A stretch of DNA of 51,699 nucleotides, from the NCBI GenBank assembly GCA_002869265.1, contig PKTH01000030.1:1-51699 (forward strand), in the 5' to 3' direction. The translations under genes and the position numbers were made by a program. A model generated the notes under the pieces. It ran no database searches. It worked only from the letters and a program-made list of their open reading frames with translations, and had not been told where the DNA came from. Below, in pieces: positions 4,784 through 51,699 of the stretch (position 1 is its first letter; the number at the start of each line of letters is the position of its first letter). This stretch comes from Candidatus Parcubacteria bacterium. GTDB taxonomy: Bacteria; Patescibacteriota; Patescibacteriia; Patescibacteriales; BM507.

Positions 4784-5287
4784 ATGACTAAAAAATTAAT
4801 CAAATTTGGATTTTTCGTTTTTGTGTTTTTTTCTGCTTTTGGAATTGTGAATGCCGATGAGCGAATTGCAAACGAAAACGTAATAAGTGACGCTAGTATT
4901 TCTCTCGAACTTGCCTTCTTTGATGCTAGCTCAAGTACTGGAATTTTAAATATCATGGTTGACCCGGGCTCACAAAGTGCTAACGCCAGTGGTCTCGTTC
5001 TAAACTTTGCAACTAGCACGATCCAAATAAATAGCATACTAACTGGAAACTCGTTTTGCAGTTTTTTTCTTGAAAACAATTTCGATAATAGTACTGGAAA
5101 ATTGAGTTTAAGCGGAATGAAACCCTACCCTGGAATAGCCACCTCAAGCCTTATGGGACAAATATTTTTTGAAAAGATCTCAACTAGTTCATCTGATATT
5201 ATCATCAACCAAGACGAATCAATGGTCTTAGCCAACAACGGCTATGCTACGAACGTCCTAGCAACAAGCAGCTCACTTAAGTTGTAA
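4784..5287 (+). CDS. Small secreted cohesin-like domain protein
   Basis: 167 aa with signal peptide MTKKLIKFGFFVFVFFSAFGIVNA. The single domain is collinear with the cohesin-like domains of 5560..7314 and 33497..35260. For example, KLSLSGMKPYPG...GQIFFEK...MVLANNGYATNVL aligns with SISFGGGIPRPG...FSVTFKA...AVLANDGKGTNIL. Confidence 0.55.
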   Translation: MTKKLIKFGFFVFVFFSAFGIVNADERIANENVISDASISLELAFFDASSSTGILNIMVDPGSQSANASGLVLNFATSTIQINSILTGNSFCSFFLENNFDNSTGKLSLSGMKPYPGIATSSLMGQIFFEKISTSSSDIIINQDESMVLANNGYATNVLATSSSLKL

Positions 5288-5304
5288 TTAATTTAAGACA
5301 CAAT

Positions 5305-7335: not shown

Positions 7336-8427
7336 TTATTGTTGTTTGTTTTCTAAGTCCTCTGTCTCATCCATCTCTTCCTCTACTGCTTTCATAGACT
7401 TTAATTTCCTGTAGATATATCTGGCAAAAATAAATACCAGGAATGCTATTATTAATAATATTAGCACAGCTGCCCCTATTATTAAATAGTCAAAGTCAAC
7501 CACTTTAGCTGTGTTAGGCTTTTCTGGGATATATTCAACACTCCTCTCGTTTCCAGCCCTATCAACTGCCTTAACTCGAATAATGCTCCTTAGACTTTGA
7601 TCTTTTAGAAGCTGTGGTGTTTTGGCTATCTCCCACTCTGCTTCAGGTGACTCTTTGAAAAATTCAATTAATTTCTCTGTTAAAGTTTTCTCAACATTTT
7701 GCTTTGCGCTTTCTAATATTTCGTAATGGTCTATACCACTCTGTTTATCTATACTTGAAAAAATTGCAAAATATTGTCCTTGAAAAATATTATCGCTTTG
7801 GTGTAATTCAATCACAAAGGGTTCTGGTTTTATGCTGTCGCTTTTTATATAAGCATCATAATCGCCCGCTTCGGTGCCTGAATTTTTATTCAATTTAATG
7901 CTAAGATTTTTTGTTTTAAGCCTATCTTCTGTTCCTAGGCCGTCATTGACATACACCTTGGCATCTTCAAGTTTGATGTTAAGAGTTTCTGGAATAGCCT
8001 CTCCAACGTAAAAACCTGGTATTCTAAAAAGAAGTCGTCCCACTAGATTGCTTTCTCCCGGGTCTCCTGGAATCTTTCCGCAATAACCGCCTGGGATTCC
8101 TCCAGCAATATAGATTTCCCCAATTCCACTTGAATCTAGAATCTCGGCCTCGGATGGTTGCTCCACCCAAACGTTTATCAAAGACTCCCCGCTGACAAAA
8201 TCTTCTAAATAAAGAAGGTTAGGAGGAAAGGTAATTTTTGTTTCTACGGTGTTCACACAAACATCGTCTATGTCGAGTGAAATATTTACAGTAAAAGAGT
8301 CCCCTAGCCCATATTCTTGCTTAGCTGAATCTAGACTCAGGCTGGCGGCTTGAGCATTTAGAGGTATTAAAGTTATAAATAATAATCCTAGTAAATATTT
8401 TTTCATAAAATTATTTGAAATTTTCAT
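7336..8427 (-). CDS. Membrane-anchored cohesin-like protein
   Basis: 363 aa. Order: signal peptide, cohesin-like domain (ASLSLDSAKQEYGLGDSFTVNISL...IYIAGGIPGGYCG...LLFRIPG), a second beta domain, C-terminal TM helix (IIGAAVLILLIIAFLVFIF), and a short acidic tail. An alternative start lies at Met8 (8406). Confidence 0.55.
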   Translation of the reverse strand: MKISNNFMKKYLLGLLFITLIPLNAQAASLSLDSAKQEYGLGDSFTVNISLDIDDVCVNTVETKITFPPNLLYLEDFVSGESLINVWVEQPSEAEILDSSGIGEIYIAGGIPGGYCGKIPGDPGESNLVGRLLFRIPGFYVGEAIPETLNIKLEDAKVYVNDGLGTEDRLKTKNLSIKLNKNSGTEAGDYDAYIKSDSIKPEPFVIELHQSDNIFQGQYFAIFSSIDKQSGIDHYEILESAKQNVEKTLTEKLIEFFKESPEAEWEIAKTPQLLKDQSLRSIIRVKAVDRAGNERSVEYIPEKPNTAKVVDFDYLIIGAAVLILLIIAFLVFIFARYIYRKLKSMKAVEEEMDETEDLENKQQ

Positions 8428-8434
8428 AAATATA

Positions 8435-9685
8435 TCAACCTGTCCAATAATACATCATTACAGAAAAATCGATCAAATCAACTTCACCATTTTGGTTCTG
8501 ATCGGCACATTCATTGTCAGTTCCCCAATGATAAAGAAGAATTGAAAAGTCTGTTATATTAACCCTGCCATCGGCATTTAAATCAGCCTCATCACAAACC
8601 GCTGTTCCACCAACTGTTCCCACAAAGAAGCTGATAGACTTCGAAAAGCCACTTTGTAAGTCAGTGTCTTCCGAAGCAATAGTGAACATGGCCTTGGCTG
8701 TATGAAATTCCTCTTCTAGGGGTTCCGTGTTGAAAACAAACTCCCAGGCGCCATCTTCAGTACTTTCAACGCTATTTATAAACTCTTGGGGAGAATTAAT
8801 GTGTACGTTTACTCCTGACTCTGGAATAGTATTACCAAACACCATTATATCATCTCCTCTTTTCACAGTTTTTTTATCTATATCAATGGTCGGTGAAATA
8901 TAAACCCCGCTAATATTTGTGACTGCTCCTGAGGTAACCCTAAAAGTCAGAGAAAGCAAGGTAGATTTTAGGCCAACAGGGTCTTCAGACCAAAAACCAA
9001 ATCCCGAAACGCCCGGAGCAAGCTCGTCAGTTTCAAAATAAAAGTCTGCCAGTGAATCTGTTCGAGCTATACCAATAACTTTACCATCTAGAAGTATGTG
9101 CACATCTGAATTCGGGTATGACTTTCCTCTTACTATCACCTTGGTCTCTCCTGGGGGAACATCTGAGCCTGGATTAAAACCGGTTGCATTGCCAGAATTC
9201 CCTCCAGTCGAACCACCGCCTCCGCCACCACCAAAAATAACGTCCTCACTCTCACAATTATCTAAACTAATACGACAGTCTCCTGTACAACTAAGGGAGC
9301 CTCCCGTAAAACCAAATGTTATGCAGGTGGAAGAGCCAAAATCACTAGCATCGCACTCTTCGGCATCTTCTTTTGTCAAATTTCCGCAAGTATAACAACT
9401 TCCTGTATCATAGTCAGTACAATCAGAGAGACAACCAAGATCTCCTGAGTTGTATCCATAGTCGAGACAAGTTAGTCCATTTAAGTCAGGAGGCATAATT
9501 GGTGGTTCTCCGGGATCACAAACCTCAAGACCCTGAATAAAACCATCACCGCAAACCAAAAGTAGCGTGACAGAAGTAATTAGGCTTTCCTGAGTAGCTG
9601 CACTAACCCTAAACGGGGAAAGAGACAACGAAAAAAGTAGTAAATAAAATATTGTATAGCGAATTTTTTCTTTTATACTTTGCAT
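8435..9685 (-). CDS. Secreted dockerin-terminated protein with Cys-rich head
   Basis: 416 aa with a signal peptide. Cys-rich repeats of the CGDG-x(n)-E-x-CD type are followed by a poly-Gly linker (GGGGGGGSTGG) and two Ig-like domains. The C-terminal dockerin has two Ca-binding-loop-like repeats (DLNADGRVNITDFSILLYHW / DQNQNGEVDLIDFSVMMYYW). Confidence 0.75.
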   Translation of the reverse strand: MQSIKEKIRYTIFYLLLFSLSLSPFRVSAATQESLITSVTLLLVCGDGFIQGLEVCDPGEPPIMPPDLNGLTCLDYGYNSGDLGCLSDCTDYDTGSCYTCGNLTKEDAEECDASDFGSSTCITFGFTGGSLSCTGDCRISLDNCESEDVIFGGGGGGGSTGGNSGNATGFNPGSDVPPGETKVIVRGKSYPNSDVHILLDGKVIGIARTDSLADFYFETDELAPGVSGFGFWSEDPVGLKSTLLSLTFRVTSGAVTNISGVYISPTIDIDKKTVKRGDDIMVFGNTIPESGVNVHINSPQEFINSVESTEDGAWEFVFNTEPLEEEFHTAKAMFTIASEDTDLQSGFSKSISFFVGTVGGTAVCDEADLNADGRVNITDFSILLYHWGTDNECADQNQNGEVDLIDFSVMMYYWTG

Positions 9686-9705: not shown

Positions 9706-10770
9706 TTATTTTTCTCTATCGCTGTCTTGATACTTTGAAGCTTTTCTTGCCATCCATTTCCAAAATCTAACCTTAACATCTGAAAAAGAGGAACCAATGA
9801 GACTAAAAATAAATTTAAATGGGATCAAAATAACTGAAATTGCCCAAAATAGCGCTCGCCAAGATCTAAGTTTGATAAGTACAGCGAGGATTATCAGAAG
9901 AATAAACACGTACAAAGCTAAGAGAAGCCATGGCCAAATTCCAAAGTCGGGAGCTCTGTCTCCAAGCTCTCCCGGATTATATATAGTAAAGGTTCTGTCT
10001 TCTGCACGCAGAATGTCATTGTCTTTATATACTTTAATTTTTGCCCAATACTGCCCTGGCTCAAGATCAATCGGGAAGCTTGCTTCAACATCTCCTGTTG
10101 AAAATGGCGCAATCTTATCAAAGCTTTTATCGTCGACAGAGGCGAGGACGTTCTTTTTGGAAATATCTGTAACTTCTAAATTAACTCTAGTTGGTGCTAT
10201 TTCTGAGTTACCAAGGTTTTCAATTGTCATTACCGCTCTCAACCTATAAAAAAACCATGAGAAAATTTTCATATCCCATGGAAAACTAAGCTTTTCAAAA
10301 TCAACTAAATTGATTTTTTCAATTTTAAAATTAAATACCGTTTGATTGCTAACGGTTAGGTCTATTTCTACCCTTGCACCAAGAGCAATAGCCACTCCGC
10401 TTTGCTGATCTCCCTTTGGGGTGATTTTAATATTTATATTACCCTTATAATTATCTAGCTCAGCGTCCTTGGGGACATCTACCACTACTACCATTGGAAC
10501 CTGTAATTTGCCTTTTGGCAGGTCGAAGTTATTACCTTCTTTAATTGTAATCCAAGAAGAAATTTCAGGGGCGTTTATAACAATCGAGGCCTCTAAGTCC
10601 TCATCCGCAGCAGACCTGAGAAGGGTTATGGTTTGTTCGTAATGAATCCCTGGTGTTAATTTGTCTGATTTAACATAGGGAGGAGAAATTCCAAAGCCTG
10701 CCATCACAGGACTAGCCTGGAAGACGAATGTTGCTAACAAAATAATTGTTAAAACTTTCTTAAACATCAA
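9706..10770 (-). CDS. TM-anchored surface protein, DUF916/DUF3324-like (WxL-interacting-protein-like) architecture
   Basis: 354 aa. Signal peptide, two beta-sandwich-like domains (GFGISPPYVKSDKLTPGIHYEQTITLLRS...SSWITI...VPKDAELDNYKGNINI), then C-terminal TM segments. Same layout as 38859..39932, 39929..40912 and 40914..42020. Confidence 0.45.
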   Translation of the reverse strand: MMFKKVLTIILLATFVFQASPVMAGFGISPPYVKSDKLTPGIHYEQTITLLRSAADEDLEASIVINAPEISSWITIKEGNNFDLPKGKLQVPMVVVVDVPKDAELDNYKGNINIKITPKGDQQSGVAIALGARVEIDLTVSNQTVFNFKIEKINLVDFEKLSFPWDMKIFSWFFYRLRAVMTIENLGNSEIAPTRVNLEVTDISKKNVLASVDDKSFDKIAPFSTGDVEASFPIDLEPGQYWAKIKVYKDNDILRAEDRTFTIYNPGELGDRAPDFGIWPWLLLALYVFILLIILAVLIKLRSWRALFWAISVILIPFKFIFSLIGSSFSDVKVRFWKWMARKASKYQDSDREK

Positions 10771-11042: not shown

Positions 11043-12809
11043 TTACCACTCACCAGCTACATTGTCATCTAAGGCTGCTGAGAAGGTGTTCAATCCGTAA
11101 TAATCACCCGATAAGATAATTGGTACTGCGATTCCCCAGTAAATCTCATCTTCAACATTCGTGACACTTGTTGGTCTTGGAATTACTGTATCTGCTAAAG
11201 TTTGTGAAGAAGAGGCTATGTTTGTACCTCCTCCATATGTAAAGTTTGATAACAAGAATTCCTGATTACTAGCTGGGATATATTCAGGCCCTACTAGCTC
11301 CCTAAGCATGTCGTCACCAATTAAATTAGTATCTAGAGGAGAATTTCCAGCGTTTACTACAGTGGTTGTAGCATTATCTGATCCTGAATCTGTATTGGCT
11401 ATCAATGATCCATAAGCAATTTCTGGTTCAGTTACCTCAATGGCTGAAGAGGTGTTCACATCAACACCTGGGGAAGTAGAAGCATAAGAAGCAGCTTCAT
11501 CGAAAGCCCTAATTGAGGCGAACCAAGCTGTGTCCCAAGCTCCATTAGCATCCGTTCCGTCGCCACTTGTAGGTTTTGCATAAAAAACTAAATCTGTAGT
11601 GCATTGAACAACAACATCAATATCATTACCACCGGTACAGCCTGAAACAGTACAAGAGCCGCTAGCTATCTGATAACAATCATTATCGTCGGCTGAACAA
11701 TCAGCTCCTCCAACTGCATCTTCCCAGAAAATAGTTCCAGTAGCTGAGTCTATATCTCCACAACCATTATTATCTGTTATTGTTGTTGAACTAGCATAAA
11801 CTGTTTTATCAGCTGCGCCTTTTATATTTAGAGTAATAGCGGTTCCATTGTTTAGGAGAACTGAAGAAACCGATGGAGTAGCATTGGCAGCTGTGTAAGT
11901 GCTTGTCTGAGAATTTCCGCTTGCAGCCATATCGTTATCATCCATCACAAAACCATAATATGAAATAGCTGTGTCATCTTGAAGAGGTATTGGACTGGTC
12001 CAAGTACAGCTCACATTTGCAGATGTTGAAGTAGCTGTACAAATCGTAGAATCGGCACACCCAGTAGAGGTGGCCCAAGAATTTGTAGTACAAACATCAA
12101 GGGTTAGAACATCGGCCCCACCGATAACATCTCCATCAGTAACGACTGCCTCTACTGTGAAGTCTTGACCTGGTTCATTTAAATCATCTGTTGTAGAAAT
12201 TGAGGAAAAAGAAGGTGCATGGTTTAGATGAAAGGGGGTTCCAGAGTCACCACTACCACTATTTGAAGTAGCGGCGCAAGCAGCTTCTGTTCCGTGGTTA
12301 TCACAGACATAGGCTACCCAAGCCCTGGTTTCTGGTGCCCAGGCTTGAACTGTATAAGAACAAGAAGCTGGGTTTGAGGCCGTAGTTGCTCCTGAAACAC
12401 AGAATTGAACATTGTCGCAACTTGGAGCGGCTCCTGCCACTCCTGGAGTAGCACCATCAGAATCACAAACTAATAAATAATAATCATTACCCTCAGCATC
12501 GTCTCCAGTCCCTGTAAACGTTAAAGAATCTCCAATATTCGTCGGAGTAGTTGAAGCAGAAGCAGGACTCTCTGCTGGGTTAACTGTGAAATAAGGGGCA
12601 GCATTTCTAACTGTAACTGTAGTGGTTGCTACATCAGTTACTTGAGCCTCAACTTCTGGAAGTTCAACGCTCAAGCCCAGTTTATTGCCTACCTTCTCAA
12701 TACTAATATCAAAATTAAAAACCAAGCCAGAAACAGAAAGGCTTAGCAGACAAAGTATTAAAAAGAATGGCAAAGAATTTTTAAATTTATTCTTGATTAT
12801 TTTAGCCAT
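11043..12809 (-). CDS. Secreted protein, standalone paralog of the C-terminal ~520 aa of the 4677-aa giant
   Basis: 588 aa with a signal peptide. From NAAPYFTVNPAESPASASTTPTNIGDSLTFTGTGDDAEGNDYYLLVCDSD onward it is collinear with the giant-1 segment SNSAPSFTANPSDNNSATSTPTNLGQDVTFTATALDAETDDYYLAICQTD. The collinearity continues to the C-terminal tails (IYWGIAVP...SGDYYGLNTF versus LYWGIGIP...ASIYNGQNDF). Confidence 0.7.
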   Translation of the reverse strand: MAKIIKNKFKNSLPFFLILCLLSLSVSGLVFNFDISIEKVGNKLGLSVELPEVEAQVTDVATTTVTVRNAAPYFTVNPAESPASASTTPTNIGDSLTFTGTGDDAEGNDYYLLVCDSDGATPGVAGAAPSCDNVQFCVSGATTASNPASCSYTVQAWAPETRAWVAYVCDNHGTEAACAATSNSGSGDSGTPFHLNHAPSFSSISTTDDLNEPGQDFTVEAVVTDGDVIGGADVLTLDVCTTNSWATSTGCADSTICTATSTSANVSCTWTSPIPLQDDTAISYYGFVMDDNDMAASGNSQTSTYTAANATPSVSSVLLNNGTAITLNIKGAADKTVYASSTTITDNNGCGDIDSATGTIFWEDAVGGADCSADDNDCYQIASGSCTVSGCTGGNDIDVVVQCTTDLVFYAKPTSGDGTDANGAWDTAWFASIRAFDEAASYASTSPGVDVNTSSAIEVTEPEIAYGSLIANTDSGSDNATTTVVNAGNSPLDTNLIGDDMLRELVGPEYIPASNQEFLLSNFTYGGGTNIASSSQTLADTVIPRPTSVTNVEDEIYWGIAVPIILSGDYYGLNTFSAALDDNVAGEW

Positions 12810-13400: not shown

Positions 13401-14138
13401 TTAACTATATCTAATAGCGTCTAGGGGGTTTAGACTTGAAGCGCGCTGAGACGGGAAAAGTCCGGTCAAAAAGCCCATCACCGCTGAAAAAGAAGCTATA
13501 AATAATAAAAATGGAATTGGGAATCTAAAAAGAGCAATCGATTCTCCTCCCATTTTGGAGGCAACTGAGTTTAGGAGGAAATTTACTGTCAAACCACCAC
13601 CAACACCAATGGCCATACCAACCACCCCTCCAAGAAAGCCCATGATAACTGACTCTGTTAAAAATAAAGTTTTGATAATTGAGGGTGAACCACCAATGGT
13701 TCTCATGATACCAATCTCCTTGGTTCTTTCGAGTAGGGTAACCGTCATGGTGTTAAACATACCAATCGCTGACACCATAAGAGCGATGCCACCAAAAATA
13801 GCCAAAGTTACTTGGATTCCTTGAAAAATTTTATTTGCCTGGTCAACGGTCTTTGAGAGAGCGGTTACTATAAAACCTTTATCTAGAATCTGGGCTTCAG
13901 CTGCATCTAAAAATTCGTTGCTGGTTATTTTTACTCTAGCTTTATCGTAATAAGGAATAGCAAAATTATCACTAAACTCAGTTAAAGGAATATAGGCAAA
14001 AAGAGATGCTTGGTCATCTATAACCCCAGCGATTGTATATTCTTTTTTTAGAGGGGCCTCAATAACATCTTCGGAATTTAGTTGAGGAATAAAAACCTTA
14101 AAACTCACCTTTTTGCCGAGAGCATCAACTGGTTCCAT
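13401..14138 (-). CDS. ABC transporter permease, C-terminal part (end of MacB-type periplasmic domain plus FtsX 3-TM domain)
   Basis: 245 aa with a typical FtsX-domain core (LLERTKEIGIMRTIGGSPSIIKTLFLTES) and three TM helices. Its ATG immediately follows the TAG stop of 14139..14597 in the same frame. Confidence 0.8.
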   Translation of the reverse strand: MEPVDALGKKVSFKVFIPQLNSEDVIEAPLKKEYTIAGVIDDQASLFAYIPLTEFSDNFAIPYYDKARVKITSNEFLDAAEAQILDKGFIVTALSKTVDQANKIFQGIQVTLAIFGGIALMVSAIGMFNTMTVTLLERTKEIGIMRTIGGSPSIIKTLFLTESVIMGFLGGVVGMAIGVGGGLTVNFLLNSVASKMGGESIALFRFPIPFLLFIASFSAVMGFLTGLFPSQRASSLNPLDAIRYS

Positions 14139-14597: not shown

Positions 14598-14600
14598 ATA

Positions 14601-37583: not shown

Positions 37584-37591
37584 TATTAATT

Positions 37592-38853: not shown

Positions 38854-38858
38854 AAAAA

Positions 38859-40912: not shown

Positions 40913-40913
40913 A

Positions 40914-42216: not shown

Positions 42217-42244
42217 ATAAAAAACCCTCTTTAGTAAGAGAGTT
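42217..42244 (-). terminator. Terminator of 42270..43310
   Basis: Minus-strand RNA reads AACUCUCUU-ACUA-AAGAGGGUU (9 bp including one G-U) followed by a U-run. On the plus strand the equivalent stem has a mismatch. Confidence 0.7.
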
Positions 42245-42269
42245 TTTTATTATATGTAATCTATTTCAA

Positions 42270-43310
42270 CTAGTAAGTTGGAGTTACGACATATGTTAGG
42301 GTAGTTTCATAATCACCAGCTTCTTGCAAAGCATTGATTTGAACTGAATAAGCTACGTTGGTTAACCCTTTGTCAGCTTCTGTGTTTGAAGAAGGTCCAT
42401 TGTGACCCATTATGACAAATGGTGTACCAACGGTTAGTCCTGCGTAGAATCCATCTGCAAATGTTGTCTCTCCATTTAGAGAGTCATTTTCATCGGAAGC
42501 AAAACCTAGATGCCCCCAAGTTGTTGGAGTGTCAAGATCTCCACTTGGAGCAATCCAGTCTGTAGGAGTGGTTGTAGCTGAGCCGTCAACAAAACTATCA
42601 ATAATAGCTCCAGCAGCTGTATCAAAATCAGAATTTTGAGTAACAGTTACTTGAAAACCATCCGAAGCATTTGTGGTGACACCTAATTGTTGGCCAAGTA
42701 TGTATTGGGTGCCTGGCAAGATATCTCCGAAAGCAGTTGTTGTCGCGGTTGATGTTCCTGTGGTTGCATCTCCATTGATTGTCACGCCATTATTAACACC
42801 ACTAAGTGCAAATGTTAGAGTTGAATCAACGTGAGCTGTAACAGTAACTGTATCAATAACAGCAACTTTTACAATTGATGACTCAAGTAATGTATCTCCT
42901 GAATCATAGGTCCTGATCTCGACATCATAGATTCCAGCAGTTGGGTTTGTAATATTATTAATTACAATTTGCTGGGTCCCAGTAGCTAGACCGTCTGTAT
43001 CATACAAACAGCTGGCTGTTCTAGGAGTTGATGTTCCTTCTGTACCATTGCCCTGACAGGTTATGTCAGCAGTGTCACCGATAATTCCAAAACTGGCACT
43101 TTGAAGTTCAACTTCAATATAACCGTTTGTGTCGAGAACTACAGCTGTGTCGAAATCAACAGTGTGATTAGCAAGAGTGCTAGGGGCTGATGTTGATAGG
43201 GTATCACTTACATTTGAAAGTGACGCTGCGTTTGCAACTGGAATAACAGCATATGTTAAGACCAATGAAAACACCACAACGAGCGTTAGCGCTTTTCTAA
43301 CTTTTTTCAT
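42270..43310 (-). CDS. Secreted surface protein with WxL-like C-terminal module
   Basis: 346 aa with a signal peptide. The N-terminal module reads NVSDTLSTSAPSTLANHTVDFDT. The C-terminal module resembles the WxL domain layout (FGDILPG...TTNASDGFQVTVTQ...LQEAGDYETTLTYVVTPTY) and is homologous to 43676..44782 and to the last ~170 aa of giant 2. Confidence 0.55.
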   Translation of the reverse strand: MKKVRKALTLVVVFSLVLTYAVIPVANAASLSNVSDTLSTSAPSTLANHTVDFDTAVVLDTNGYIEVELQSASFGIIGDTADITCQGNGTEGTSTPRTASCLYDTDGLATGTQQIVINNITNPTAGIYDVEIRTYDSGDTLLESSIVKVAVIDTVTVTAHVDSTLTFALSGVNNGVTINGDATTGTSTATTTAFGDILPGTQYILGQQLGVTTNASDGFQVTVTQNSDFDTAAGAIIDSFVDGSATTTPTDWIAPSGDLDTPTTWGHLGFASDENDSLNGETTFADGFYAGLTVGTPFVIMGHNGPSSNTEADKGLTNVAYSVQINALQEAGDYETTLTYVVTPTY

Positions 43311-43428
43311 GGGAATTGAAAATATTAGTTTTTTAAAAACAAGCTTGTTTTCAATTATTTGTTCTTATGGGTCGACCTTTTGCCGCATGGGGATCATGGA
43401 CAGCCCCAAAGCTCAAACAATTAACATT

Positions 43429-43437
43429 ATTATAACA
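43429..43437 (-). promoter_or_regulatory. Extended -10 promoter (TGTTATAAT) of 42270..43310
   Basis: The rc of 43429..43437 is TGTTATAAT. This predicts a ~110-nt 5' UTR that is unusually GC-rich for intergenic DNA in this window. Confidence 0.45.
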
Positions 43438-43606
43438 TATTTTAAACATATTATTAACTACTTGTCCCCATTTCTTTGTTTAAGCCTATTATAAACTGCA
43501 TTATTCTTTATTTTACTATAATATTTTAAAATTATTTTACTAAAATAAGCCTTCTTTTTTTCAAATATATGATATCGTATTGTAAACTTATCCACAGCTC
43601 AGAAAT

Positions 43607-43644
43607 AAAAAAAACTAAGCCCCCAGTAGGGACTTAGTTTTTTT
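43607..43644 (-). terminator. Terminator of 43676..44782
   Basis: Stem ACTAAG+CCC (43614..43622) / GGG-a-CTTAGT (43629..43638) with one bulge, flanked by an A-run (43607..43613) and a T-run (43638..43644). Confidence 0.7.
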
Positions 43645-43675
43645 GAGTGAGATATATTTGCTTGTCTTGGCTTTT

Positions 43676-44782
43676 TTAGTAGACAGGAGTTGCTACATAA
43701 GTAAGAACTGTTTCGTAGTCACCGGCTTCCTGTAGTGAGGAAACCTCTGCAGTATAAGCTACTAGAGTTCTACCTTTGTCAATGGTTTTACCATCAGCCG
43801 GAGAGTTGTGGTACATAACTTCAACTGAGTTAGCTGAACCGTATCCGTTGAAACCTACATACAAACCAGAGTTTGTATTTGCATCAAATGGATCTAGATC
43901 ACCCCAGTTAAGAGTTTCATCATCTGATGTTAATCCCATATGACCATAAGTCTCAAATGAATCAAGAATAGCTGATGGTTGTGCCCAAGCAGCAGGAGTG
44001 CTTGAACCAGTTCCGTCTGCGGCGTTATTAAAACTGTTAATAGTTGAATTAGAATCAGATCTAAGTTCATCATCTTGATAAACTACTACTGAATAACCAT
44101 CATCAGCATTAGTAATAACTTTTAACTCTTGGCAAAGTGTTTTTGGAGTATCTACAGCAAGTGTTCCGAAATCTAGTAATGTAGAAGAAGCAGAAGTATC
44201 AACATCACAAGCTTCACCATTTACCACAGCAGCTGTTGTAGTACCAGTAATTGTGAAGTTAAGAGTTGAAGTAACTCTAGCTGTCATTAGAACATTATCT
44301 ACGATAGCAACCATAGGGTATGCTTGATCGTATGTAACTGTCTCACCAGCATTTGTTGTATGAATATCCATTCTATAAAAACCTGCAGCTGGGTTTACTA
44401 CATCTGTAACAACTACTTGTAAAGTGCCAGATGCTACTCCACCAGCAGTTACTGGGCAAGTAATTGTGTTCACAGCTACTACTGCAGCTCCGAAGTTTCC
44501 AGCAGGACAAGTAACGTTTCCTTGAGCAATCCCCGAGAAATCATCATCATCTTCATCAATCTCAATGATTAGAAGATCTGTGTCCACTAAAGGAGTGACA
44601 GTTGTGAAATCAAAAGTGTGGGTTGCGGTTGCTCCTGGATCTGAGTCAGTAAGTGTATCACTAACATCGATCAAAGAGTTAATTTGCGCGTTTGCGAATG
44701 GGACCATTGGAAAGGCTCCATACATTGTCATCATCGATAGCATCACTATCCCAATGACTATTTTTTTTCTTAATTTTTTCAT
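43676..44782 (-). CDS. Secreted surface protein with WxL-like C-terminal module (paralog of 42270..43310)
   Basis: 368 aa with a signal peptide. The N-terminal module reads DVSDTLTDSDPGATATHTFDFTT. The C-terminal module reads FGTLAVD...ITNADDGYSVVVYQ...LQEAGDYETVLTYVATPVY. Confidence 0.55.
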   Translation of the reverse strand: MKKLRKKIVIGIVMLSMMTMYGAFPMVPFANAQINSLIDVSDTLTDSDPGATATHTFDFTTVTPLVDTDLLIIEIDEDDDDFSGIAQGNVTCPAGNFGAAVVAVNTITCPVTAGGVASGTLQVVVTDVVNPAAGFYRMDIHTTNAGETVTYDQAYPMVAIVDNVLMTARVTSTLNFTITGTTTAAVVNGEACDVDTSASSTLLDFGTLAVDTPKTLCQELKVITNADDGYSVVVYQDDELRSDSNSTINSFNNAADGTGSSTPAAWAQPSAILDSFETYGHMGLTSDDETLNWGDLDPFDANTNSGLYVGFNGYGSANSVEVMYHNSPADGKTIDKGRTLVAYTAEVSSLQEAGDYETVLTYVATPVY

Positions 44783-44890
44783 AAATTTTTTTATTTTTAT
44801 TTTTTATTTATATTAAGGAATTTAAACTTTGTTTAGGGTGCTAATCACTTAGCACTTACCTATAATCGACCTTTTAACAGAAAGGTAATA

Positions 44891-44927
44891 AAAAAATGCT
44901 TTCTGTTTAAACAAAAAGCATTTTTTT
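44891..44927. terminator. AT-rich bidirectional hairpin, possible terminator downstream of giant 2
   Basis: AAAAAATGCTTT (44891..44902) pairs with AAAGCATTTTTT (44915..44926), a 12-bp stem that is mostly A-T. It lies ~350 nt beyond the giant-2 stop. Confidence 0.4.
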
Positions 44928-45278
44928 ATATAAAATATCTAATTTTATACGAGTTTTGAATAGTTTAAGCTATTCTTGTTTGTTTTTGCTTTTTGTTTTT
45001 GAATTTGCTAGTTTTTCTAACAAATTTGTTTTTTAGTCTAGATGTAATTGTCAACGAACTTCCCTTTTTTTATCTTATATTACCATTATACACTATATAC
45101 TAGTTTTAGTCAATGTGCGTGAGCATTTATATACTATGGTTAACTAATATTAAATAAAATATTTAGTATTAATTATTTTAATAATTTTTTAACTTTTGAC
45201 TTATCAACAGTTATTTTTATTTAATGATAGCAAGTTAAAAAATAACATTAGAACATTTTTTTAAAATATTGTATATAT

Positions 45279-48200
45279 TTAATAGAAAGAAGGTATTAAT
45301 ATATAGTTAATTTGGGTAGCATAGTCTCCAGCCGCTTGGTTTGCTGTAATGTTAGTCCTAAAAACCATATCAACCACTTCATTACTAACTGGTATTTGGC
45401 TATATGAAACCTCCCTCATGGCTGTTTCTAGCTTTGCGTATGTATTATTAGGGGAAAATCTGGATGGAGAAGCTCCAGACAAGGTGTCATCTCCACTATG
45501 ATAACCAAAAGCACTTGGGTCTGGTGAAGAAGGCCAGGCAGACGGGGATGAATTTTCTGAGCTAACAGGGACTATTATATCACCTCCGTTACTAATCAGC
45601 TCTTGTGTTTGATAGACAAATAATTGGTAACCAGCACTAGCATTTGTGCTAATATTAAACCTTTGCACGGCAATTGCATCAAAGCCAGGACTTAAAGAAC
45701 CAAAAGGAATGCTTGAGGGGGTTGTGCTAATATTAGCTGTTACACCTTCTGTGCTTTGACCAGCGTCAAAGCTGTCAACTGCATAGCTAATACTCCCTGC
45801 ACTTGTCAAAAGACTTGGGAAGGAATTTACACTATTCTTAGCTATTGGTTCAGACTCATTGTTATCATAAGCCCTAAAATAATAGGTTACATAATCTGTA
45901 GCTCCATTGTTTCTAATTGTAAATTCCCACTCTCCAATGTCACCGGCTGGCAGATCATAAGTAGTAGTTGAAATACCAGATTCATTATGAGAGCCTCCTA
46001 TTATAATATCAGGCAATAGATTTGTGGTTACCGGATCATTGTCATCATCAACACCATTACCATATGTCCAAATTTCAGATGTTCCTATTTCACCCACTAA
46101 ATGGACATCAGTCGAAAAATCAGAATAAGTTGAATATTGTAAACGAATTTTAACATCATCACCGGTAATTCCTTCAATCTCTCTAATTCCTAATCTTAGT
46201 TTAATTATCGCCCCATCAGAGATGTCATTTGGGCTAGTGTTTAGGTTGGCGGCGCTACTGGTTGGTGTTTCATTTTGTTCATCATGATACCAATGCCAAT
46301 CAGCTGTTTCTGCTTGATATTTAATAATTATTGTTACCTCATTATCTGATACCGCCTTGTTACCATATTCATCAAATGCCCATATTCTAAACACATATTG
46401 ATGATTTGTTTCCAGTCCTGTAACTGTGGTTGTGGTTGCCCCATTATAATTAATATAGTCTAGATTTGCGTCAGAACTAGTTCCCCAGAGAGTATCTGAC
46501 AAAGTAACTCCACTAGAGCCTTCTTTGTAATATATTCTATAATCGCTGAAGTTTGTATCGAAGGTGCTTGTCGCAAATCCTAGAGTGATGCTATTGCTTG
46601 TCTTACTGACCTCAAATAAATCCCCTGGCGTACTTGGGTCTATATTATCTATTGTCAAAGTCGTGGTTGCTGACACTAGTTGTTCCTCAATCCCATCGAA
46701 AGTTGTGAGTTGTAAACAATAGTCACCATCGGCTGTTGGAATATCTGAGTTGGTAAGCCAATCAAAATTTACGGTATTTGGTCCAGCCGCACTAACAATC
46801 ATCCCCGAACTAGTTCCAACTTGGTAAGGGTAATCGTTGTCTATCTTTGGCTGCCCAAAATCGGCAGTAATGTTTGTGAGGTTTTCATCTAGGCTAGGAT
46901 CGAGAGGTGTTGTGAAGTCACAATCAATCCCGGAAACATAATCAATTCTTGCTTGATCCAAATCTCCACCAGCATCACTAACCTCTATAGAAATATCAAC
47001 TACTCCAGAACCATCGCTTTTTTGATTTACACTATTGAATACTCCCTCGACAGGTGGCGCCAAAGTAAGCTCTGGATATTTACTGTAAACCTCAACTGCT
47101 GTCCCTGAGTTTGTTAATCTAAAACAATAAACGTTTCCCGCTCTCGCATTTAAAGAAGGTTTAAAAGAGTATTCCATTTCAGTATAATCACCAGAGGCCA
47201 GATCTACTGCGTTTGCACTATTACCGGGATTTTCGACCATGTGTCCTGAAATAAAGTTATAAGCTTCGGAATTAGAAAGCTTCTGGGTTGTTGATAGCTG
47301 ATCTGAAAAATATATACTATCAATCATTTCAAAATGCTCTGTCGTTGCTGTGTCGGGTAAGCCAATCCAGGTTGAAATGTTTTCACAAAAATCATCTTTG
47401 AGACCATATTCGATATCAAAATTATAAGTACTAACATCAACGTCCCCTGTATTGGCCATAGAGATTCTCAGCCTAATCGGATCTTCTCTGCCAATTGGGA
47501 TAGATGCTGTTGGGTCATTGACGTCCTCGTTCTCCCTCCAGGTAGCAGAGACAATAATTGTCGTTGTAGTCGAAACCTCTCCACTGGCACTTGATTTATT
47601 CCCATAATCATCATAAGCCCAAATATTAAAGACATAGTCTGTGTTTTGCACTAAATTCTCAATAGTAGTTGTAGCAGCTGAATTATAGGAGATGTCTCCT
47701 AAGTTGAAATCATTATACTGATTAAATTCTAGATCGCTTTCACTCACTCCATTAGTCCCCTGCTTATAATATATTTTATATTCTGAAAAATTTGAATCTG
47801 TGCTAGAAGCTCCAAAATCAAGAGTCACTCCATACCCTGTTACACTGTTGACCGAAAGGTCTCCTGGAGCGCTGGGACTAACATTGTCAATATATATGGT
47901 AGTTGTAGCTGGAACGTTTTGATCGTCGATTCCATCATTTACCACGAGACGCATGCAATATACACCATCAGCTGAAGGTAGCTGAGATTTACTATCTCCA
48001 TCAAAGTTTACTGTATTTGAGCCACTAGAGGTTATGATACCTGTGCTTGTACCGATTTGATACTCATTGTCATTTTCAATGCCGACAATTCCATAATCGG
48101 CGCTTATGTTTTCCGGGCTTTCATCAAGCAGTGGAACTTGTGGTGAAGAAAAATCACAATCAGCCCCGGCAAAATCCAATTTAGCATAAACCAGATCACC

Positions 48201-51200
48201 ATTTGGATCATAGACCTCTATGGAAATATCAACCGTTCCTGATCCATCAATTTTTTGAGCAACAGAATTAAAGATACCGGTTGGAGGGGCATTAGTAGTA
48301 AGGGTGGTTTGCCCTGAATAATTTTTATTTCCAAAATCATCATAAGCATAAATTTTAAAACTGTATTGAGTATTTGCTAAAAGCCCCCCTATTGTAGTGG
48401 TGGTGGTCTCATTGAAATTTAGATCTAGAAGATCGGCGTCTATATGCTCTAAATCATTTTCCGTCACAGAAGCTGCTCCTTGTTTATAAAATATTTTGTA
48501 ATATTTAAAATTACTGTCTGTAGTGCTCGCTCCGAAACTAAGAGTTAAGCTATCACTAGTTCTACTAACATAAGATAGATCTCCTGGTGCAGTCGGGACA
48601 ACATTATCAATCACTAGGGTTGTGGTAGCTGGATTTGTTTCAGAGTCTTCTCCATCAAAAGCAGTCATTTTGAGGCAATAAGTTCCGTCGGCACTAGCTT
48701 CGTCACTAGCACTAAACCAGTCAAAGCTTACTGTGTTTGCGCCAGCACTTGTTTCAATCCAACCTGAAACATTACCGATCTGATATTCATTGTCATTCTC
48801 TACTTTAGCGTCTCCTGTTGTCGAGGTAGCGTTTGCATCTGTTTCATCTAGACTTGGATCTAGAGGGCTAGCAAAATTACAGTCGCTGCCAGAAACATAT
48901 TGAAGTCTTGCTTGCAAATCATCATCATTATCATCATCAAACTCAACAAAAATATCAACCAAGCCACTACCGTCTGTTCTCTGGGTAGCGCTTAGAATGT
49001 TTGAGCTTGGTGGAGCATTGGTGGTAATTGCCAGCTCAGTAGCACTTGCCTTATTTCCTGCTTCATCATAAACCCAGATATTAAACACATAATCAGTAAA
49101 GGGAGAAAGCCCGCCGATGACTGTTGTAGCAGCACTGTTGTAATCAATATCTGCTAAATTTATATCAGTCGAAGATGAATGGAGAGAATCGGTTTCAGCA
49201 ACCCCACTTAAGCCTTCTTTATAATAAATTTTATATTCTGCAAAATTTAGTTCTGTACTGGCTGAGCCAAAATTAAGAGTAACTGAGTTTTGGGTTCTAG
49301 AATCTAGACTTAGATTTCCGGGACTACTTGGCACTGTATTATCAACCTTGAAATTTGGGTCAACTCCATAATCCACCCAAAAAGAGCAAACACTATCATC
49401 GTCACAGGCCATTACTTGCCATTTATAACCTATGCTTGAGTCTGGAATATTTGTCGGATTTATCTGACCAATAAATGGAGTAACACTATAGTCACCCGAA
49501 GCAGATGTAATTGACCAAACCTTGGACGAACAAGAATCCCAAACTGCATCAAAAGAACAAGCTGAGCTTGTGCTGTTAGTAAAAGAGTCTGTGCTAGTGG
49601 CCAGCTCGAAATAAAGAGTGATAACTTCACTTGTATCACCGTCCAGAACTGAAGCCTCTAGTTTTATGTTATCCTCTTCTGTCCATGAATCATTTGTAAT
49701 TTGAGTACTTCCATTATTTTTGTATTGAACTAAAGACCCCGGGGAGGCTGGGATATCGTTTGTGCTGACTGTAAGCTCTGAAGCACTTGTCTTGTTTCCA
49801 TAAACATCATATGCCCAAATATTAAATACATAATCCGTCCCTTCGCTCAATCCACTAATGGTAGTTGAATTGCTTTGATTAAAATTTTGATCTAGGAGAT
49901 CACTATCTATGTGCTCTGTGTCAGTTTCTAACACTCCACTAGTCCCCTCTTTATAAAATATTTTATAATGAGAAAAATTTGGGTCACTAGAAGTCGCACC
50001 AAAGTCTATGATTATTTCATAAGTGTCTCTAGTATTTAGATTTAGATTGCCAGGAGCGCTAGGAGCAACGTTGTCTATTAAGACTGTAGTAGTGGCTGGA
50101 TTAGCCTGATCAAACGTTCCATCATTTGCAGTTAATTGCAAACAATAAATATTGTTTGGTGATGTAACATCAACACTTGAGAGCCAGTCAAAGTTTACAG
50201 TGTTCGAACCAGGGGAAGTTTGAATCCAAGCTGTACTTGAACCTACCTGATAAGTAGTGTTGTTATCTATGTCTGGATCTCCGTAATCAGCGGTTACATT
50301 TGAATCGGTTTCATCAAGACTAGGATCAAGCGGTGTTGTGAAATCACAGCTTGTTCCAGCTACATAATCAATACGTGCTCTAAGAGTATCATCATTGTCG
50401 TTATCGTCGACTTCAATAGAAATATCTACAGTACCACTGCCGTCGGTTTTTTGAGCCGCTGAATTAAAAAGGGCTACTGGAGGCGTGGCTGCTGTTTGGG
50501 TGGTGGTACTATATTCAGTCGCCCCAACATAATTTCCTGCCAAGTCAAAAGCGTAAATGTTAAATACATATGTAGTTCCAGCTGGCAAATCATTAACAAC
50601 TACTGTGCTTGCTCCGTTGTAATCAGAATATCCTAAATTTGGATCATCTGTGGAATTAAATTCTGTATCATTTATTGAAACTCCTGAACCCCCCTCTTTA
50701 TAAAAAATCTTATATTCAGAAAAATTAGAATCACTTGAGGTCGCCCCAAAATTCAAAGTTACATCTGTACTAGTTTTTGAGTTAAAAGTCAGATCCCCAG
50801 GAGTACTAGGGTCTATTGTGTCAACCTTAAAGTTTGGATTGCTGTCAAAAACTGTCCACTCAGAACAAACCCCATTAATTCCACAAGCCAAAGATTGCCA
50901 TTTGTAACCACTGGCTGAATCATCGATATTTGTCACATTTACTGTTCCAACATAAGGGCTAACAGTAAAATCTCCGGAACCTGATTGAACATACCAGACA
51001 CCTGAAAGACAAGAGGCGAAATCAGTTCCGCTAACACAAGCTCCACTAGGTTCGGAAGTTGCCGTAGTAAAAGAGCCTCCGTCTACCAAGACTTCAAAAT
51101 ATATTCTTATAGTTTCTGGATTATCACCATCGTTTACGCTGGCTCTTAGTTTTATATTGTCTTCATCGGTCCAGGCTCCATTTAAAATTTCGGTAACTTC

Positions 51201-51699
51201 ATCATTTTTATATTGATACAAATTAAAGGGGTCTGTGGGCACATAAGCTGTTTTATAAGAAACTTCCGTAGCCGATGATTTGTTCCCCGCTTGATCATAT
51301 GCCCAAATATTAAAAACATAATCTGTTCCCTCAGATAAATTATTGATAGTGGTTGTTGTCGCTCCATTATAGTTTATAAAAGAAAGATTTCCGTCAGAAT
51401 GCTCTGTATTTATTTCAGACACTCCACTTAGTCCTTCTTTATAGAATATTTTATATTCCAAAAAGTTTGATTCGGTGGCCTCTGATCCAAAGTTTAAGGT
51501 GATTGAATTGTTAGTTTTACTACTTAGGCTTAAGTCGCCAGGGCTGGTTGGGTTAGTTGCATCCACTCCTGGTCTGTTACCTGCATCGCTGGTGGTATAG
51601 GCCACTGAATTATTGCCGGCTGGGTCAACTAAGCTAATGTTAACTGGTAAGTCATTAGCATCTAGAATATCCGTGTGTCCCTCAGCCACGGTGTAGCTA
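45279..51699 (-). CDS. Second giant modular surface protein, 5'-partial (at least 2136 aa) with WxL-like C-terminus
   Basis: The reading frame is open to the window edge; the listed Met at 51689 is a GTG and upstream codons carry no stop. It contains seven FN3-like modules, four AQKTDGSG-type modules, two 4-Cys GYKWQ..ACDD modules and two WRE/WHWY modules. The last ~170 aa (..NASAGYQLFVYQ..AFGYHSGDD..AAGDYATQINYILIPSFY) are homologous to the C-termini of 42270..43310 and 43676..44782. Confidence 0.85.
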   Translation of the reverse strand, partial: SYTVAEGHTDILDANDLPVNISLVDPAGNNSVAYTTSDAGNRPGVDATNPTSPGDLSLSSKTNNSITLNFGSEATESNFLEYKIFYKEGLSGVSEINTEHSDGNLSFINYNGATTTTINNLSEGTDYVFNIWAYDQAGNKSSATEVSYKTAYVPTDPFNLYQYKNDEVTEILNGAWTDEDNIKLRASVNDGDNPETIRIYFEVLVDGGSFTTATSEPSGACVSGTDFASCLSGVWYVQSGSGDFTVSPYVGTVNVTNIDDSASGYKWQSLACGINGVCSEWTVFDSNPNFKVDTIDPSTPGDLTFNSKTSTDVTLNFGATSSDSNFSEYKIFYKEGGSGVSINDTEFNSTDDPNLGYSDYNGASTVVVNDLPAGTTYVFNIYAFDLAGNYVGATEYSTTTQTAATPPVALFNSAAQKTDGSGTVDISIEVDDNDNDDTLRARIDYVAGTSCDFTTPLDPSLDETDSNVTADYGDPDIDNNTTYQVGSSTAWIQTSPGSNTVNFDWLSSVDVTSPNNIYCLQLTANDGTFDQANPATTTVLIDNVAPSAPGNLNLNTRDTYEIIIDFGATSSDPNFSHYKIFYKEGTSGVLETDTEHIDSDLLDQNFNQSNSTTISGLSEGTDYVFNIWAYDVYGNKTSASELTVSTNDIPASPGSLVQYKNNGSTQITNDSWTEEDNIKLEASVLDGDTSEVITLYFELATSTDSFTNSTSSACSFDAVWDSCSSKVWSITSASGDYSVTPFIGQINPTNIPDSSIGYKWQVMACDDDSVCSFWVDYGVDPNFKVDNTVPSSPGNLSLDSRTQNSVTLNFGSASTELNFAEYKIYYKEGLSGVAETDSLHSSSTDINLADIDYNSAATTVIGGLSPFTDYVFNIWVYDEAGNKASATELAITTNAPPSSNILSATQRTDGSGLVDIFVEFDDDNDDDLQARLQYVSGSDCNFASPLDPSLDETDANATSTTGDAKVENDNEYQIGNVSGWIETSAGANTVSFDWFSASDEASADGTYCLKMTAFDGEDSETNPATTTLVIDNVVPTAPGDLSYVSRTSDSLTLSFGASTTDSNFKYYKIFYKQGAASVTENDLEHIDADLLDLNFNETTTTTIGGLLANTQYSFKIYAYDDFGNKNYSGQTTLTTNAPPTGIFNSVAQKIDGSGTVDISIEVYDPNGDLVYAKLDFAGADCDFSSPQVPLLDESPENISADYGIVGIENDNEYQIGTSTGIITSSGSNTVNFDGDSKSQLPSADGVYCMRLVVNDGIDDQNVPATTTIYIDNVSPSAPGDLSVNSVTGYGVTLDFGASSTDSNFSEYKIYYKQGTNGVSESDLEFNQYNDFNLGDISYNSAATTTIENLVQNTDYVFNIWAYDDYGNKSSASGEVSTTTTIIVSATWRENEDVNDPTASIPIGREDPIRLRISMANTGDVDVSTYNFDIEYGLKDDFCENISTWIGLPDTATTEHFEMIDSIYFSDQLSTTQKLSNSEAYNFISGHMVENPGNSANAVDLASGDYTEMEYSFKPSLNARAGNVYCFRLTNSGTAVEVYSKYPELTLAPPVEGVFNSVNQKSDGSGVVDISIEVSDAGGDLDQARIDYVSGIDCDFTTPLDPSLDENLTNITADFGQPKIDNDYPYQVGTSSGMIVSAAGPNTVNFDWLTNSDIPTADGDYCLQLTTFDGIEEQLVSATTTLTIDNIDPSTPGDLFEVSKTSNSITLGFATSTFDTNFSDYRIYYKEGSSGVTLSDTLWGTSSDANLDYINYNGATTTTVTGLETNHQYVFRIWAFDEYGNKAVSDNEVTIIIKYQAETADWHWYHDEQNETPTSSAANLNTSPNDISDGAIIKLRLGIREIEGITGDDVKIRLQYSTYSDFSTDVHLVGEIGTSEIWTYGNGVDDDNDPVTTNLLPDIIIGGSHNESGISTTTYDLPAGDIGEWEFTIRNNGATDYVTYYFRAYDNNESEPIAKNSVNSFPSLLTSAGSISYAVDSFDAGQSTEGVTANISTTPSSIPFGSLSPGFDAIAVQRFNISTNASAGYQLFVYQTQELISNGGDIIVPVSSENSSPSAWPSSPDPSAFGYHSGDDTLSGASPSRFSPNNTYAKLETAMREVSYSQIPVSNEVVDMVFRTNITANQAAGDYATQINYILIPSFY

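Follow-up and report, generated by a model that had tools for sequence, protein, structure and literature searches.

Candidate phyla radiation (CPR) bacteria are believed to lead a life attached to host cells, and their mode of attachment is largely unknown. Pam pili, donor-strand-exchange pili of CPR bacteria, were first identified in 2026 in one cultivated Saccharibacterium. Cryo-electron microscopy of Candidatus Mycosynbacter amalyticus filaments led to PamA and PamB; the pilins of the system are PamA/B/E, and its operon further encodes PamC and PamD, which are PapD/FimC-like chaperones with an unusual C-terminal transmembrane (TM) helix, the single-domain tip PamT and the RbmA-like, TM-anchored terminator PamR (bioRxiv 10.64898/2026.03.03.709456). 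The WxL/Csc clusters of Firmicutes comprise a small and a large WxL protein, a WxLIP (DUF916, DUF3324 and a TM segment) and a small LPXTG protein (PMC9772566, PMC10599100; PDB 9i1y, 9i25). Here we describe an island of surface-protein genes, almost all on the minus strand, in a 51,699-nt stretch of contig PKTH01000030.1 (hereafter the window) that has features of both systems. With some reserve, we favor the reading that the island consists of two adjacent, conserved surface-fiber operons, the fiber being a Pam-type pilus with a giant tip adhesin and a cohesin-dockerin tie to the membrane.

From domain identities, homologies, the distribution of donor and acceptor domains and synteny we infer polymerization, subunit order and cohesin-dockerin anchoring as follows. 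The right operon (33497-51699) would encode a donor-strand-exchange pilus, all parts of which would be Sec-secreted. Three membrane-tethered proteins of the WxLIP family would act as PapD-like chaperones, each capping the open C-terminal domain (CTD) of a subunit until the linker strand of the next subunit displaces it. Giant 2, with an acceptor CTD only, placed behind a very long fn3 array, would be the distal tip adhesin. The two roughly 350-aa proteins, with an N-terminal domain (NTD), linker and CTD, would donate as well as accept a strand and form the shaft, and the 603-aa dockerin protein, able only to donate, would end the fiber. Its dockerin would bind the cohesin atop a membrane-anchored stalk, so that the pilus would be held without sortase or outer membrane. 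The left operon (4784-31648) appears to be a second, related set with giant 1, its 588-aa paralog, a MacB transporter, one chaperone, one dockerin and three cohesins. Taken by itself the pilin/chaperone part of this reading is quite probable, while the anchoring step is evenly poised.

Pilin-like subunits and the distribution of donor and acceptor domains

The NCBIfam model CPR_Pam_pilin_C (NF058581, curated cut-off 55 bits), which derives from the Pam preprint (bioRxiv 10.64898/2026.03.03.709456), matches the CTDs of three window proteins: small protein 2 (E 4.7e-8, 33.3 bits, profile 3-148/148), giant 2 (E 1.7e-7, 31.4 bits, profile 3-148/148) and, over part of the profile, small protein 1 (E 3.6e-5, 23.9 bits). 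It also matches 57 of 72 relatives at E<=0.01 (best E 1.6e-9). An earlier reading of the window, made without database searches (the sequence-only reading), had assigned a WxL-like module to these three proteins, but Pfam WxL matches none of them and none of the 72 relatives; the C-terminal domains of the small proteins and giant 2 are better read as Pam pilin CTDs. The same reading had recognized neither pilin genes nor glycoside hydrolase, sortase, SLH or LPXTG features. The former statement was mistaken in view of the three CTD matches, sub-cut-off as they are; the latter holds, with no sortase, SLH or LPXTG signal in the window products.

The pilin family is large (3956 clusters at 50% identity). 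Small proteins 1 and 2 are 37% identical, and small protein 2 has four Cys residues; like PamA and PamB, the window pilins have paired cysteines. In the AlphaFold2 (AF2) model of small protein 1 (predicted local distance difference test, pLDDT, 93), two domains, both all-beta, are joined by a segment, residues 152-164, that pairs with neither. This linker segment, VAVIDTVTVTAHV, is among the most conserved stretches of the pilin family, and hydrophobic residues alternate along it (V155, A159, V161). The arrangement agrees with the published account of PamA and PamB. In Foldseek searches, which were run on AF2 models, the NTD of small protein 1 resembles BslA (TM-score 0.7).

Comparison of families by hhalign separates the two halves of the pilin among the other subunits. 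The giant family matches the CTD (probability 99.8%, E 4e-30), beginning just past the linker, with no match to pilin NTD plus linker (probability 0.3%). The CTD, about the last 170 aa of giant 2, stands without NTD or linker in giant 2 and 20 relatives; the CTD hidden Markov model (HMM) covers positions 15-196 only. The giant 2 length is a lower bound, its N-terminus extending past the window edge, and the rest of the protein is rich in fn3 (Pfam, E 4.7e-54). The 603-aa dockerin family presents the reverse: its N-terminal about 200 residues match pilin NTD plus linker (probability 99.7%, E 3.9e-25), the alignment running through the linker itself (IAIVepV vs VaIIDxVxV; the linker strand of the window protein includes IAIVQPINL), with no match to the pilin CTD (probability 0.4%). 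Exactly three window open reading frames (ORFs) have a CTD (the two small proteins and giant 2), and exactly three have NTD plus linker (the two small proteins and the 603-aa dockerin protein). In a donor-strand-exchange fiber this distribution would place the acceptor-only protein at the tip, the donor-and-acceptor proteins in the shaft and the donor-only protein at the end, and we regard it as the strongest internal evidence that the operon may encode a pilus.

Good promoter-like sites, one per small pilin gene, are present on the minus strand (45113-45085, 11/12 match; 43457-43429, 10/12), and a terminator with a 17-bp stem follows small protein 2 (43644-43608, minus strand). These signals would fit separate high expression of the small proteins, as is usual for major subunits.

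Like the Pam system, the window encodes Sec-secreted two-domain pilins with a beta-sandwich NTD, a linker strand, a C-terminal truncated-Ig-type domain and paired cysteines, chaperone-usher-like chaperones with a C-terminal TM helix (four such genes) and an acceptor-only tip subunit. Both lack an usher, a sortase and an ATPase-driven assembly machine, and both are confined to CPR bacteria. They differ in lineage (Parcubacteria/Paceibacteria in the window, Saccharimonadia/Microgenomatia for Pam) and in the tip, which in PamT is one small domain and in the window carries a giant N-terminal extension to form a multi-thousand-residue fn3 protein. At the proposed base there would be a donor-only pilin derivative that ends in a dockerin, paired with a cohesin-TM stalk; this would replace, or add to, a TM protein of the RbmA type. 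The sequence-only reading did not recognize the combined system as described. The pilin/chaperone core has since been described; the Pam preprint (bioRxiv 10.64898/2026.03.03.709456) makes no mention of cohesin and dockerin genes or of a coupling of the core to them, of giant tips or of the FGE-fold, HSP20 and 144-aa genes. Set against that core, the window system would be a Pam-type pilus distinguished by giant adhesins at the tip, by the proposed anchoring through cohesin and dockerin and by accessory genes for FGE-fold and HSP20 proteins, which are conserved; plausibly it also forms a bridge to Firmicute WxL clusters. No further Pam models (NCBIfam) are matched by the remaining window proteins.

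Chaperone-usher pili (Pap/Fim, CFA/I, Csu, Caf1) resemble the proposed system in the two-Ig-domain fold of the chaperone, in the series of acceptor-only adhesin tip, donor-and-acceptor shaft and terminator, and in the strong expression signals of their major-subunit genes. In contrast, the window system has no outer membrane or usher (no outer-membrane usher was found with Pfam and NCBIfam among all ORFs >=100 aa), its chaperones are membrane-tethered, and its subunits are two-domain with an internal donor strand.

Giant proteins from a representative sequence library (P0248, P0249, P0251, P0253, P0268 and P0295; 1937-6395 aa) contain 14-39 tandem copies of the pilin NTD, with or without linker, and look like covalently concatenated "pilus-like" arrays.

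Chaperone-like proteins and their relation to WxL clusters

A chaperone-like domain is present in four window ORFs, which the sequence-only reading had described as DUF916-like TM proteins. This description is borne out at the family level, WxLIP_PGBD being matched by 49 of 58 relatives (best E 4.8e-10), although all four window proteins are individually under the Pfam thresholds for WxLIP_PGBD and WxLIP_HBD. N-terminal signal-like and C-terminal TM segments lie where that reading had placed them, according to the hydropathy scan of window proteins from which all topology calls were made. The chaperone-like family is homologous to Firmicute WxLIPs (hhalign probability 97.4%, E 1.2e-11, 244 columns; reversed control 3%), and when PDB sequences are searched with its profile, EfmWxLIP1 comes first. 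As modeled by AF2 (pLDDT 87), the 357-aa paralog consists of two Ig-like domains and, after them, a long helix (281-320). Its top Foldseek match is the E. faecium WxLIP in the 2026 structures 9i1y/9i25_C (E 1e-11), 9i25 also including a long WxL protein, and the chaperone-usher chaperones CfaA, CsuC and Caf1M come next (E 1e-9 to 1e-7). As these proteins have the WxLIP/chaperone-usher fold and their partners carry the Pam-pilin CTD, we read the combination as chaperone plus polymerizing pilin. The DUF916-like proteins are probably chaperones rather than the static "receptors" of a wall anchor that had been suggested. What stands of that suggestion is a non-enzymatic, non-sortase surface apparatus around the giants, in which cohesin/dockerin and DUF916-like/"WxL-like" pairings recur.

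The three right-operon paralogs keep their order in 16 of 24 three-paralog loci, from a total of 84 related loci examined. In the first (TM 311-329 and 365-383) the alignment to the chaperone HMM (E 1e-97) begins at ORF residue 23, and translation probably starts at the internal ATG near 42020. The second is the most divergent (25% identity). Many orthologs of the third (P0136, P0142, P0196) are about 550 aa long and have an extra C-terminal PF13399, which we take to be LytR_C; the window copy is without it.

The homology to WxLIP also suggests a non-polymeric platform of the WxL/Csc type, in which the CTDs bind the wall, the DUF916-like proteins stabilize them on peptidoglycan and the giant adhesin is displayed. 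In favor of this are the WxLIP-like proteins themselves, with EfmWxLIP1 the best structural as well as PDB-sequence match, and the set of small protein, large protein and WxLIP-like protein that defines a WxL cluster. As in those clusters, small proteins and one large adhesin have a common module at the extreme C-terminus, and the two motifs of the module correspond (GFxVTV to GWxLTV; AGDYxTTLTYIxTP to AGxYxxTLTWxLxxxP). Local CTD-WxL alignments by hhalign fall in register on WxL motif 1 with both short and long WxL sets (P 0.011 and 0.015, reversed controls 0.4-0.7), but these are weak matches and the overall comparison is not significant (probability 3-4%). The tryptophans that define the WxL motifs are missing, F/Y standing at both W positions. 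The Pam-pilin model, built on experimentally imaged filament subunits, does match the window CTDs. Furthermore, the extra NTD, the conserved linker and the donor-only and acceptor-only proteins would have no role in a static platform, and we consider a platform of this type improbable. The WxL comparison drawn in the sequence-only reading keeps its motif-level likeness and its WxLIP homology and fails at the Pfam WxL test.

A relationship of another kind is suggested by the Firmicute clusters. In nine of them, obtained via contig look-up and plasmid tblastn (a homolog search with an EfmWxLIP1 fragment returned only 7 fragments), the short WxL proteins and the small LPXTG proteins, the latter without a WxL domain, have a common N-terminal S-x-G-x-[IV]-x-F strand, which suggests that these segments are donor strands. 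The division into tip, shaft and base thus returns there with another anchor. The published WxLIP paper already reports AF2 modeling that predicts the insertion into WxL of a strand from a DUF916 hairpin; in the literature searched we found no paper linking WxL with chaperone-usher assembly or strand complementation. We tentatively raise the possibility, which we hold at less than even, that the window operon is a bridging form of one class of systems with an acceptor-only tip adhesin and a donor-only base whose anchor is interchangeable: dockerin-cohesin here, LPXTG/sortase in Firmicutes (where it is frequent, not obligatory, in the clusters) and a TM helix (PamR) in Saccharimonadia. Differences remain, as WxL proteins are published as peptidoglycan-binding platforms and not as fibers, CPR subunits have an extra NTD, and the presumed CPR donor strand is the NTD-CTD linker rather than an N-terminal segment. 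If the bridging reading is true, WxL "platforms" would be short strand-exchanged fibers and WxLIP their chaperone. Pam pili and the Firmicute WxL/WxLIP virulence clusters have been treated in two literatures without mutual citation; linking them offers a testable mechanism, donor-strand exchange, for the WxL clusters of enterococci, listeriae and lactobacilli. In 8 of 10 short WxL proteins (loci L085, L088-L095), residues 1 to 55-73 match the NCBIfam model EF0750_LPXTG. Ten Firmicute WxL proteins gave no cross-match to CPR_Pam_pilin_C.

Cohesins, dockerins and the proposed anchor

Both dockerin proteins named by the sequence-only reading exceed the Dockerin_1 gathering score (22.9 bits), the 603-aa protein with 28.1 bits, and both dockerins are canonical, with a duplicated Ca-loop (DxNxDGxxxxxD, twice). 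Its three TM-anchored cohesin proteins fared less evenly. The 587-aa stalk (Cohesin 35.1 bits, gathering score 24.1; Big_13 E 3.3e-10; TM 481-499) and the 584-aa stalk, which are paralogous over their full length (33% identity), are cohesin proteins by Pfam. The 363-aa protein has no Pfam match and is identified by profile comparison only, its family aligning with the Pfam-positive cohesin family (hhalign probability 99.6%, E 4.6e-24). To these we add a fourth, TM-less member, the 167-aa protein (BLASTP E 8.6e-7 to the 584-aa stalk; hhalign against the cohesin family, probability 93.5%, E 2.3e-7). The C-terminal 240 aa of the 416-aa dockerin protein are 39% identical to the 603-aa protein, and the two dockerins have 39/49 identical residues, making cross-binding between the modules plausible. 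The 416-aa protein (residues about 45-160) begins with a conserved strand-like segment (ATTTIxLSIC in relatives), followed by Cys-rich CGDG...EECD repeats; for the L-type pilin of other genomes, this strand may serve as N-terminal donor.

A dockerin closes the donor-only protein, and a cohesin on a TM-anchored Ig stalk closes the operon; from this we propose that the pair anchors the fiber. Such a role would be unreported for cohesin and dockerin, and no paper in the literature searched for the two domains in CPR bacteria describes this combination. An alternative, which we judge unlikely, is that the pilus is real and the cohesin-dockerin pair separate: a TM-anchored two-Ig paralog equivalent to PamR would end and anchor the fiber, and the dockerin proteins would be co-regulated, independent adhesins on cohesin stalks. 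M. amalyticus likewise has three TM-anchored two-beta-domain proteins (PamC, PamD and PamR), and the divergence of the second window paralog is far greater than that of the others. A bona fide pilin NTD and linker without an acceptor is, however, hard to explain in an unrelated adhesin such as the 603-aa protein would then be. In addition, 13 loci have only one chaperone-like gene, leaving no spare PamR-like candidate for anchoring there, and still retain the dockerin protein, together with the cohesin as far as their sequence permits.

Cohesin and dockerin domains are also the hallmarks that would suggest a cellulosome-like, polysaccharide-degrading complex. Indeed the window has canonical dockerins, type-I-like cohesins (Pfam) and, as in cellulosome anchoring, a cohesin protein as the cell-bound partner. 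However, Pfam and NCBIfam scans found no glycoside hydrolase, lyase, esterase or carbohydrate-binding module in any window product, and both of the only two dockerin proteins are non-enzymatic. Every cohesin protein has one cohesin, with no multi-cohesin scaffoldin in the window. The window anchor is a C-terminal TM segment with a cytoplasmic coiled coil and not SLH or sortase, and the cargo would be a pilus. We consider a cellulosome-like complex very improbable and effectively excluded. The locus also differs from a sortase-assembled pilus in the absence of a pilin-specific sortase and LPXTG pilins from the window.

Several observations weigh against the pilus reading. All three window matches to CPR_Pam_pilin_C (24-33 bits) are under the 55-bit cut-off, which 0 of 72 relatives reach. 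Apart from BslA for the NTD, the full-length pilin model had no Foldseek matches other than two-Ig adhesins of a generic kind and integrins, and the search was uninformative for the CTD. PDB sequence searches with the pilin profile and a CTD-only profile gave no match at E<=10; PamA and PamB (PDB 25PZ/25QA) were absent from the PDB set searched or undetectable. The chaperone-like family is clearly homologous to WxLIP, for which the published role is the stabilization of a WxL platform that is wall-bound and non-polymeric. The Foldseek matches of the 357-aa paralog include RbmA (E about 1e-8, ranked below WxLIP and the chaperones), a point for the separate-anchor alternative; a membrane terminator like PamR may be among the three paralogs, the cohesin-dockerin pair then being an independent display system. 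The left module of the window has no pilin gene, and the gap at 8427-8435, only 7 bp, holds no remnant of one; giant 1 and the 588-aa protein are left unexplained. Finally, no filament has so far been observed in Paceibacteria.

Gene order, the left module and flanking features

The features of the window are collected in Table 1. Two gene orders recur among the related loci. R-type loci, corresponding to the right operon (n=30 with >=9.5 kb downstream), run from a giant with CTD through one or two pilins, one to three chaperone-like genes, zero to three FGE-fold genes, the 144-aa membrane protein, a dockerin protein (about 600 aa) and HSP20 to a cohesin stalk (about 590 aa). The chaperone-like gene is present in all 30, the dockerin protein and the 144-aa protein in 28 each, HSP20 in 22, and the cohesin and the FGE-fold protein in 20 each. 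L-type loci (n=11 with >=4 kb downstream) have a giant ending in a 588-like region, an fn3 protein, the ABC ATPase, the MacB permease, a 588-like protein, a chaperone-like protein, a dockerin protein (about 390 aa), a pilin (about 400 aa) and three cohesin proteins. Here the 588-like, chaperone-like, dockerin and cohesin genes are found in 11/11 and the fn3/purple-acid-phosphatase-N-type gene in 10/11. The 588-like protein lies outside the R module, and the 144-aa, HSP20 and FGE-fold genes lie outside the L module.

Conserved co-localization in related genomes, which the sequence-only reading had made a test of its proposal, is thus observed. It also bears on the view that unrelated surface-protein genes have clustered fortuitously. 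For this view it can be said that the two operons are separable and merely adjacent, the right module of a close relative (locus L001) being followed by a response regulator and not by giant 1. Yet dozens of species-level genomes, with proteins 35-45% identical, repeat both the set of genes and its order, and in 8 of the 30 R-type loci the gene after the cohesin gene is, as in the window, giant-1-like. Chance clustering has a negligible probability and is, like the cellulosome-like complex, effectively excluded. The homologs are labeled Patescibacteria, Parcubacteria, Falkowbacteria, Kaiserbacteria, Nomurabacteria, Paceibacteria and Minisyncoccia, with a few contigs of metagenome-assembled genomes bearing other, probably loose, labels. 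The nearest relative is a "Patescibacteria group bacterium" (GCA_027858235.1, protein identity 66-74%). About 70 syntenic loci suggest that a fiber system related to the Pam pilus is widespread in Parcubacteria/Paceibacteria.

Table 1. Positions and properties of the protein-coding features of the island
Feature	Coordinates	Strand	Properties and proposed role
Cohesin-like, 167 aa	4784-5287	+	Small, secreted, without TM anchor
Cohesin stalk, 584 aa	5560-7314	-	Cohesin 32.8 bits (above gathering score), Big_13
Cohesin-like, 363 aa	7336-8427	-	C-terminal TM 315-333
Dockerin protein, 416 aa	8435-9685	-	Cys-rich repeats, Gly spacer, Ig-like domains, dockerin; Dockerin_1 27.6 bits (above gathering score)
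DUF916/WxLIP-like, fourth copy	9706-10770	-	L module; TM-anchored; WxLIP_HBD E 0.012; chaperone HMM E 2e-50
588-aa protein	11043-12809	-	Secreted; paralog of giant 1 C-terminus
MacB-type ABC transporter	13401-15923	-	ABC_tran, MacB_PCD, FtsX; ATPase 14601-15923, permease 13401-14597
fn3/purple-acid-phosphatase-N-type protein, 547 aa	15927-17570	-	Membrane-anchored; from domain matches
Giant 1, 4677 aa	17615-31648	-	fn3/Ig-rich; fn3 E 3.1e-35; head of L module
ORF, 305 aa	31868-32785	-	Between the two modules; no Pfam or NCBIfam match
Cohesin stalk, 587 aa	33497-35260	-	Signal peptide, cohesin, linker, Ig-like (Big_13), TM, cytoplasmic coiled-coil tail; proposed membrane anchor
HSP20 small heat-shock protein	35273-35707	-	Pfam HSP20 E 3.7e-14; cytoplasmic-type; between dockerin and cohesin genes
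Dockerin protein, 603 aa	35772-37583	-	Pilin NTD and linker strand, Gly-rich spacer, Ig-like domains, dockerin at the C-terminus; proposed base/terminator that only donates
Bitopic membrane protein, 144 aa	37592-38026	-	TM 24-42, 114-132; conserved accessory
FGE-sulfatase-fold protein	38014-38853	-	Membrane-anchored; Pfam FGE-sulfatase E 1.1e-17; conserved accessory
DUF916/WxLIP-like paralog, 357 aa	38859-39932	-	AF2-modeled member
DUF916/WxLIP-like paralog, 330 aa	39929-40921	-	WxLIP_HBD E 0.0016; chaperone HMM E 4e-77; C-terminal TM
DUF916/WxLIP-like, first paralog	40914-42083	-	Two Ig-like domains, C-terminal TM segments; proposed chaperone or PamR-like terminator
Small protein 1, 346 aa	42270-43310	-	Architecture as small protein 2; proposed shaft pilin
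Small protein 2, 368 aa	43676-44782	-	Signal peptide, beta-sandwich NTD, linker strand, CTD; proposed shaft pilin
Giant 2, >=2136 aa	45279-51699	-	fn3-rich, C-terminal Pam-pilin-type acceptor domain; proposed tip adhesin

Giants 1 and 2 have long repeat blocks in common (48-51% identity). With its C-terminal 520 aa, giant 1 is a paralog of the 588-aa protein, at 40% identity over 530 aa, as the sequence-only reading had noted. Both end in a conserved Cys-containing region (...YWGI.VP....Y.G.NTF), and upstream of the fn3/ABC genes of other genomes there are ORFs whose C-terminus is 588-like. The divergent WxL-like module that had been suspected in this region is not supported, since hhalign comparison with the pilin CTD, pilin NTD, short WxL and long WxL gives probabilities below 1% (0.7% for the 588-aa protein against the CTD).

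The MacB permease is interrupted by an in-frame TAG (14139-14141) with an ATG directly after it (LKLF*MEPVD), and in relatives it is intact (402-435 aa). Possible readings are that the permease is a pseudogene, that the stop is an error of sequencing or that the split is tolerated. An alternative genetic code was ruled out as its explanation: TAG, the stop in question, terminates genes in the window just as the other two stop codons do, in line with the standard bacterial code, and the 4677-codon ORF is intact. The ABC ATPase (440 aa) has a roughly 210-aa C-terminal extension past ABC_tran, and its relatives are of like length (440-460 aa). In the right module, a link between HSP20 and the 80-aa cytoplasmic coiled-coil tail of the cohesin stalks is conceivable.

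Housekeeping genes flank the island (leuA, 131-1726; argS, 2203-3900), and Rfam and tRNA scans of the window gave no match. The 305-aa ORF between the modules has no counterpart in the 84 related loci. On the opposite strand just beyond the cohesin gene, positions 33056-33361(+) encode a 101-aa Lys/Ala/Pro-rich, histone-H1-like protein, and a gene of this kind occupies the equivalent position in L001 (19162-19434).

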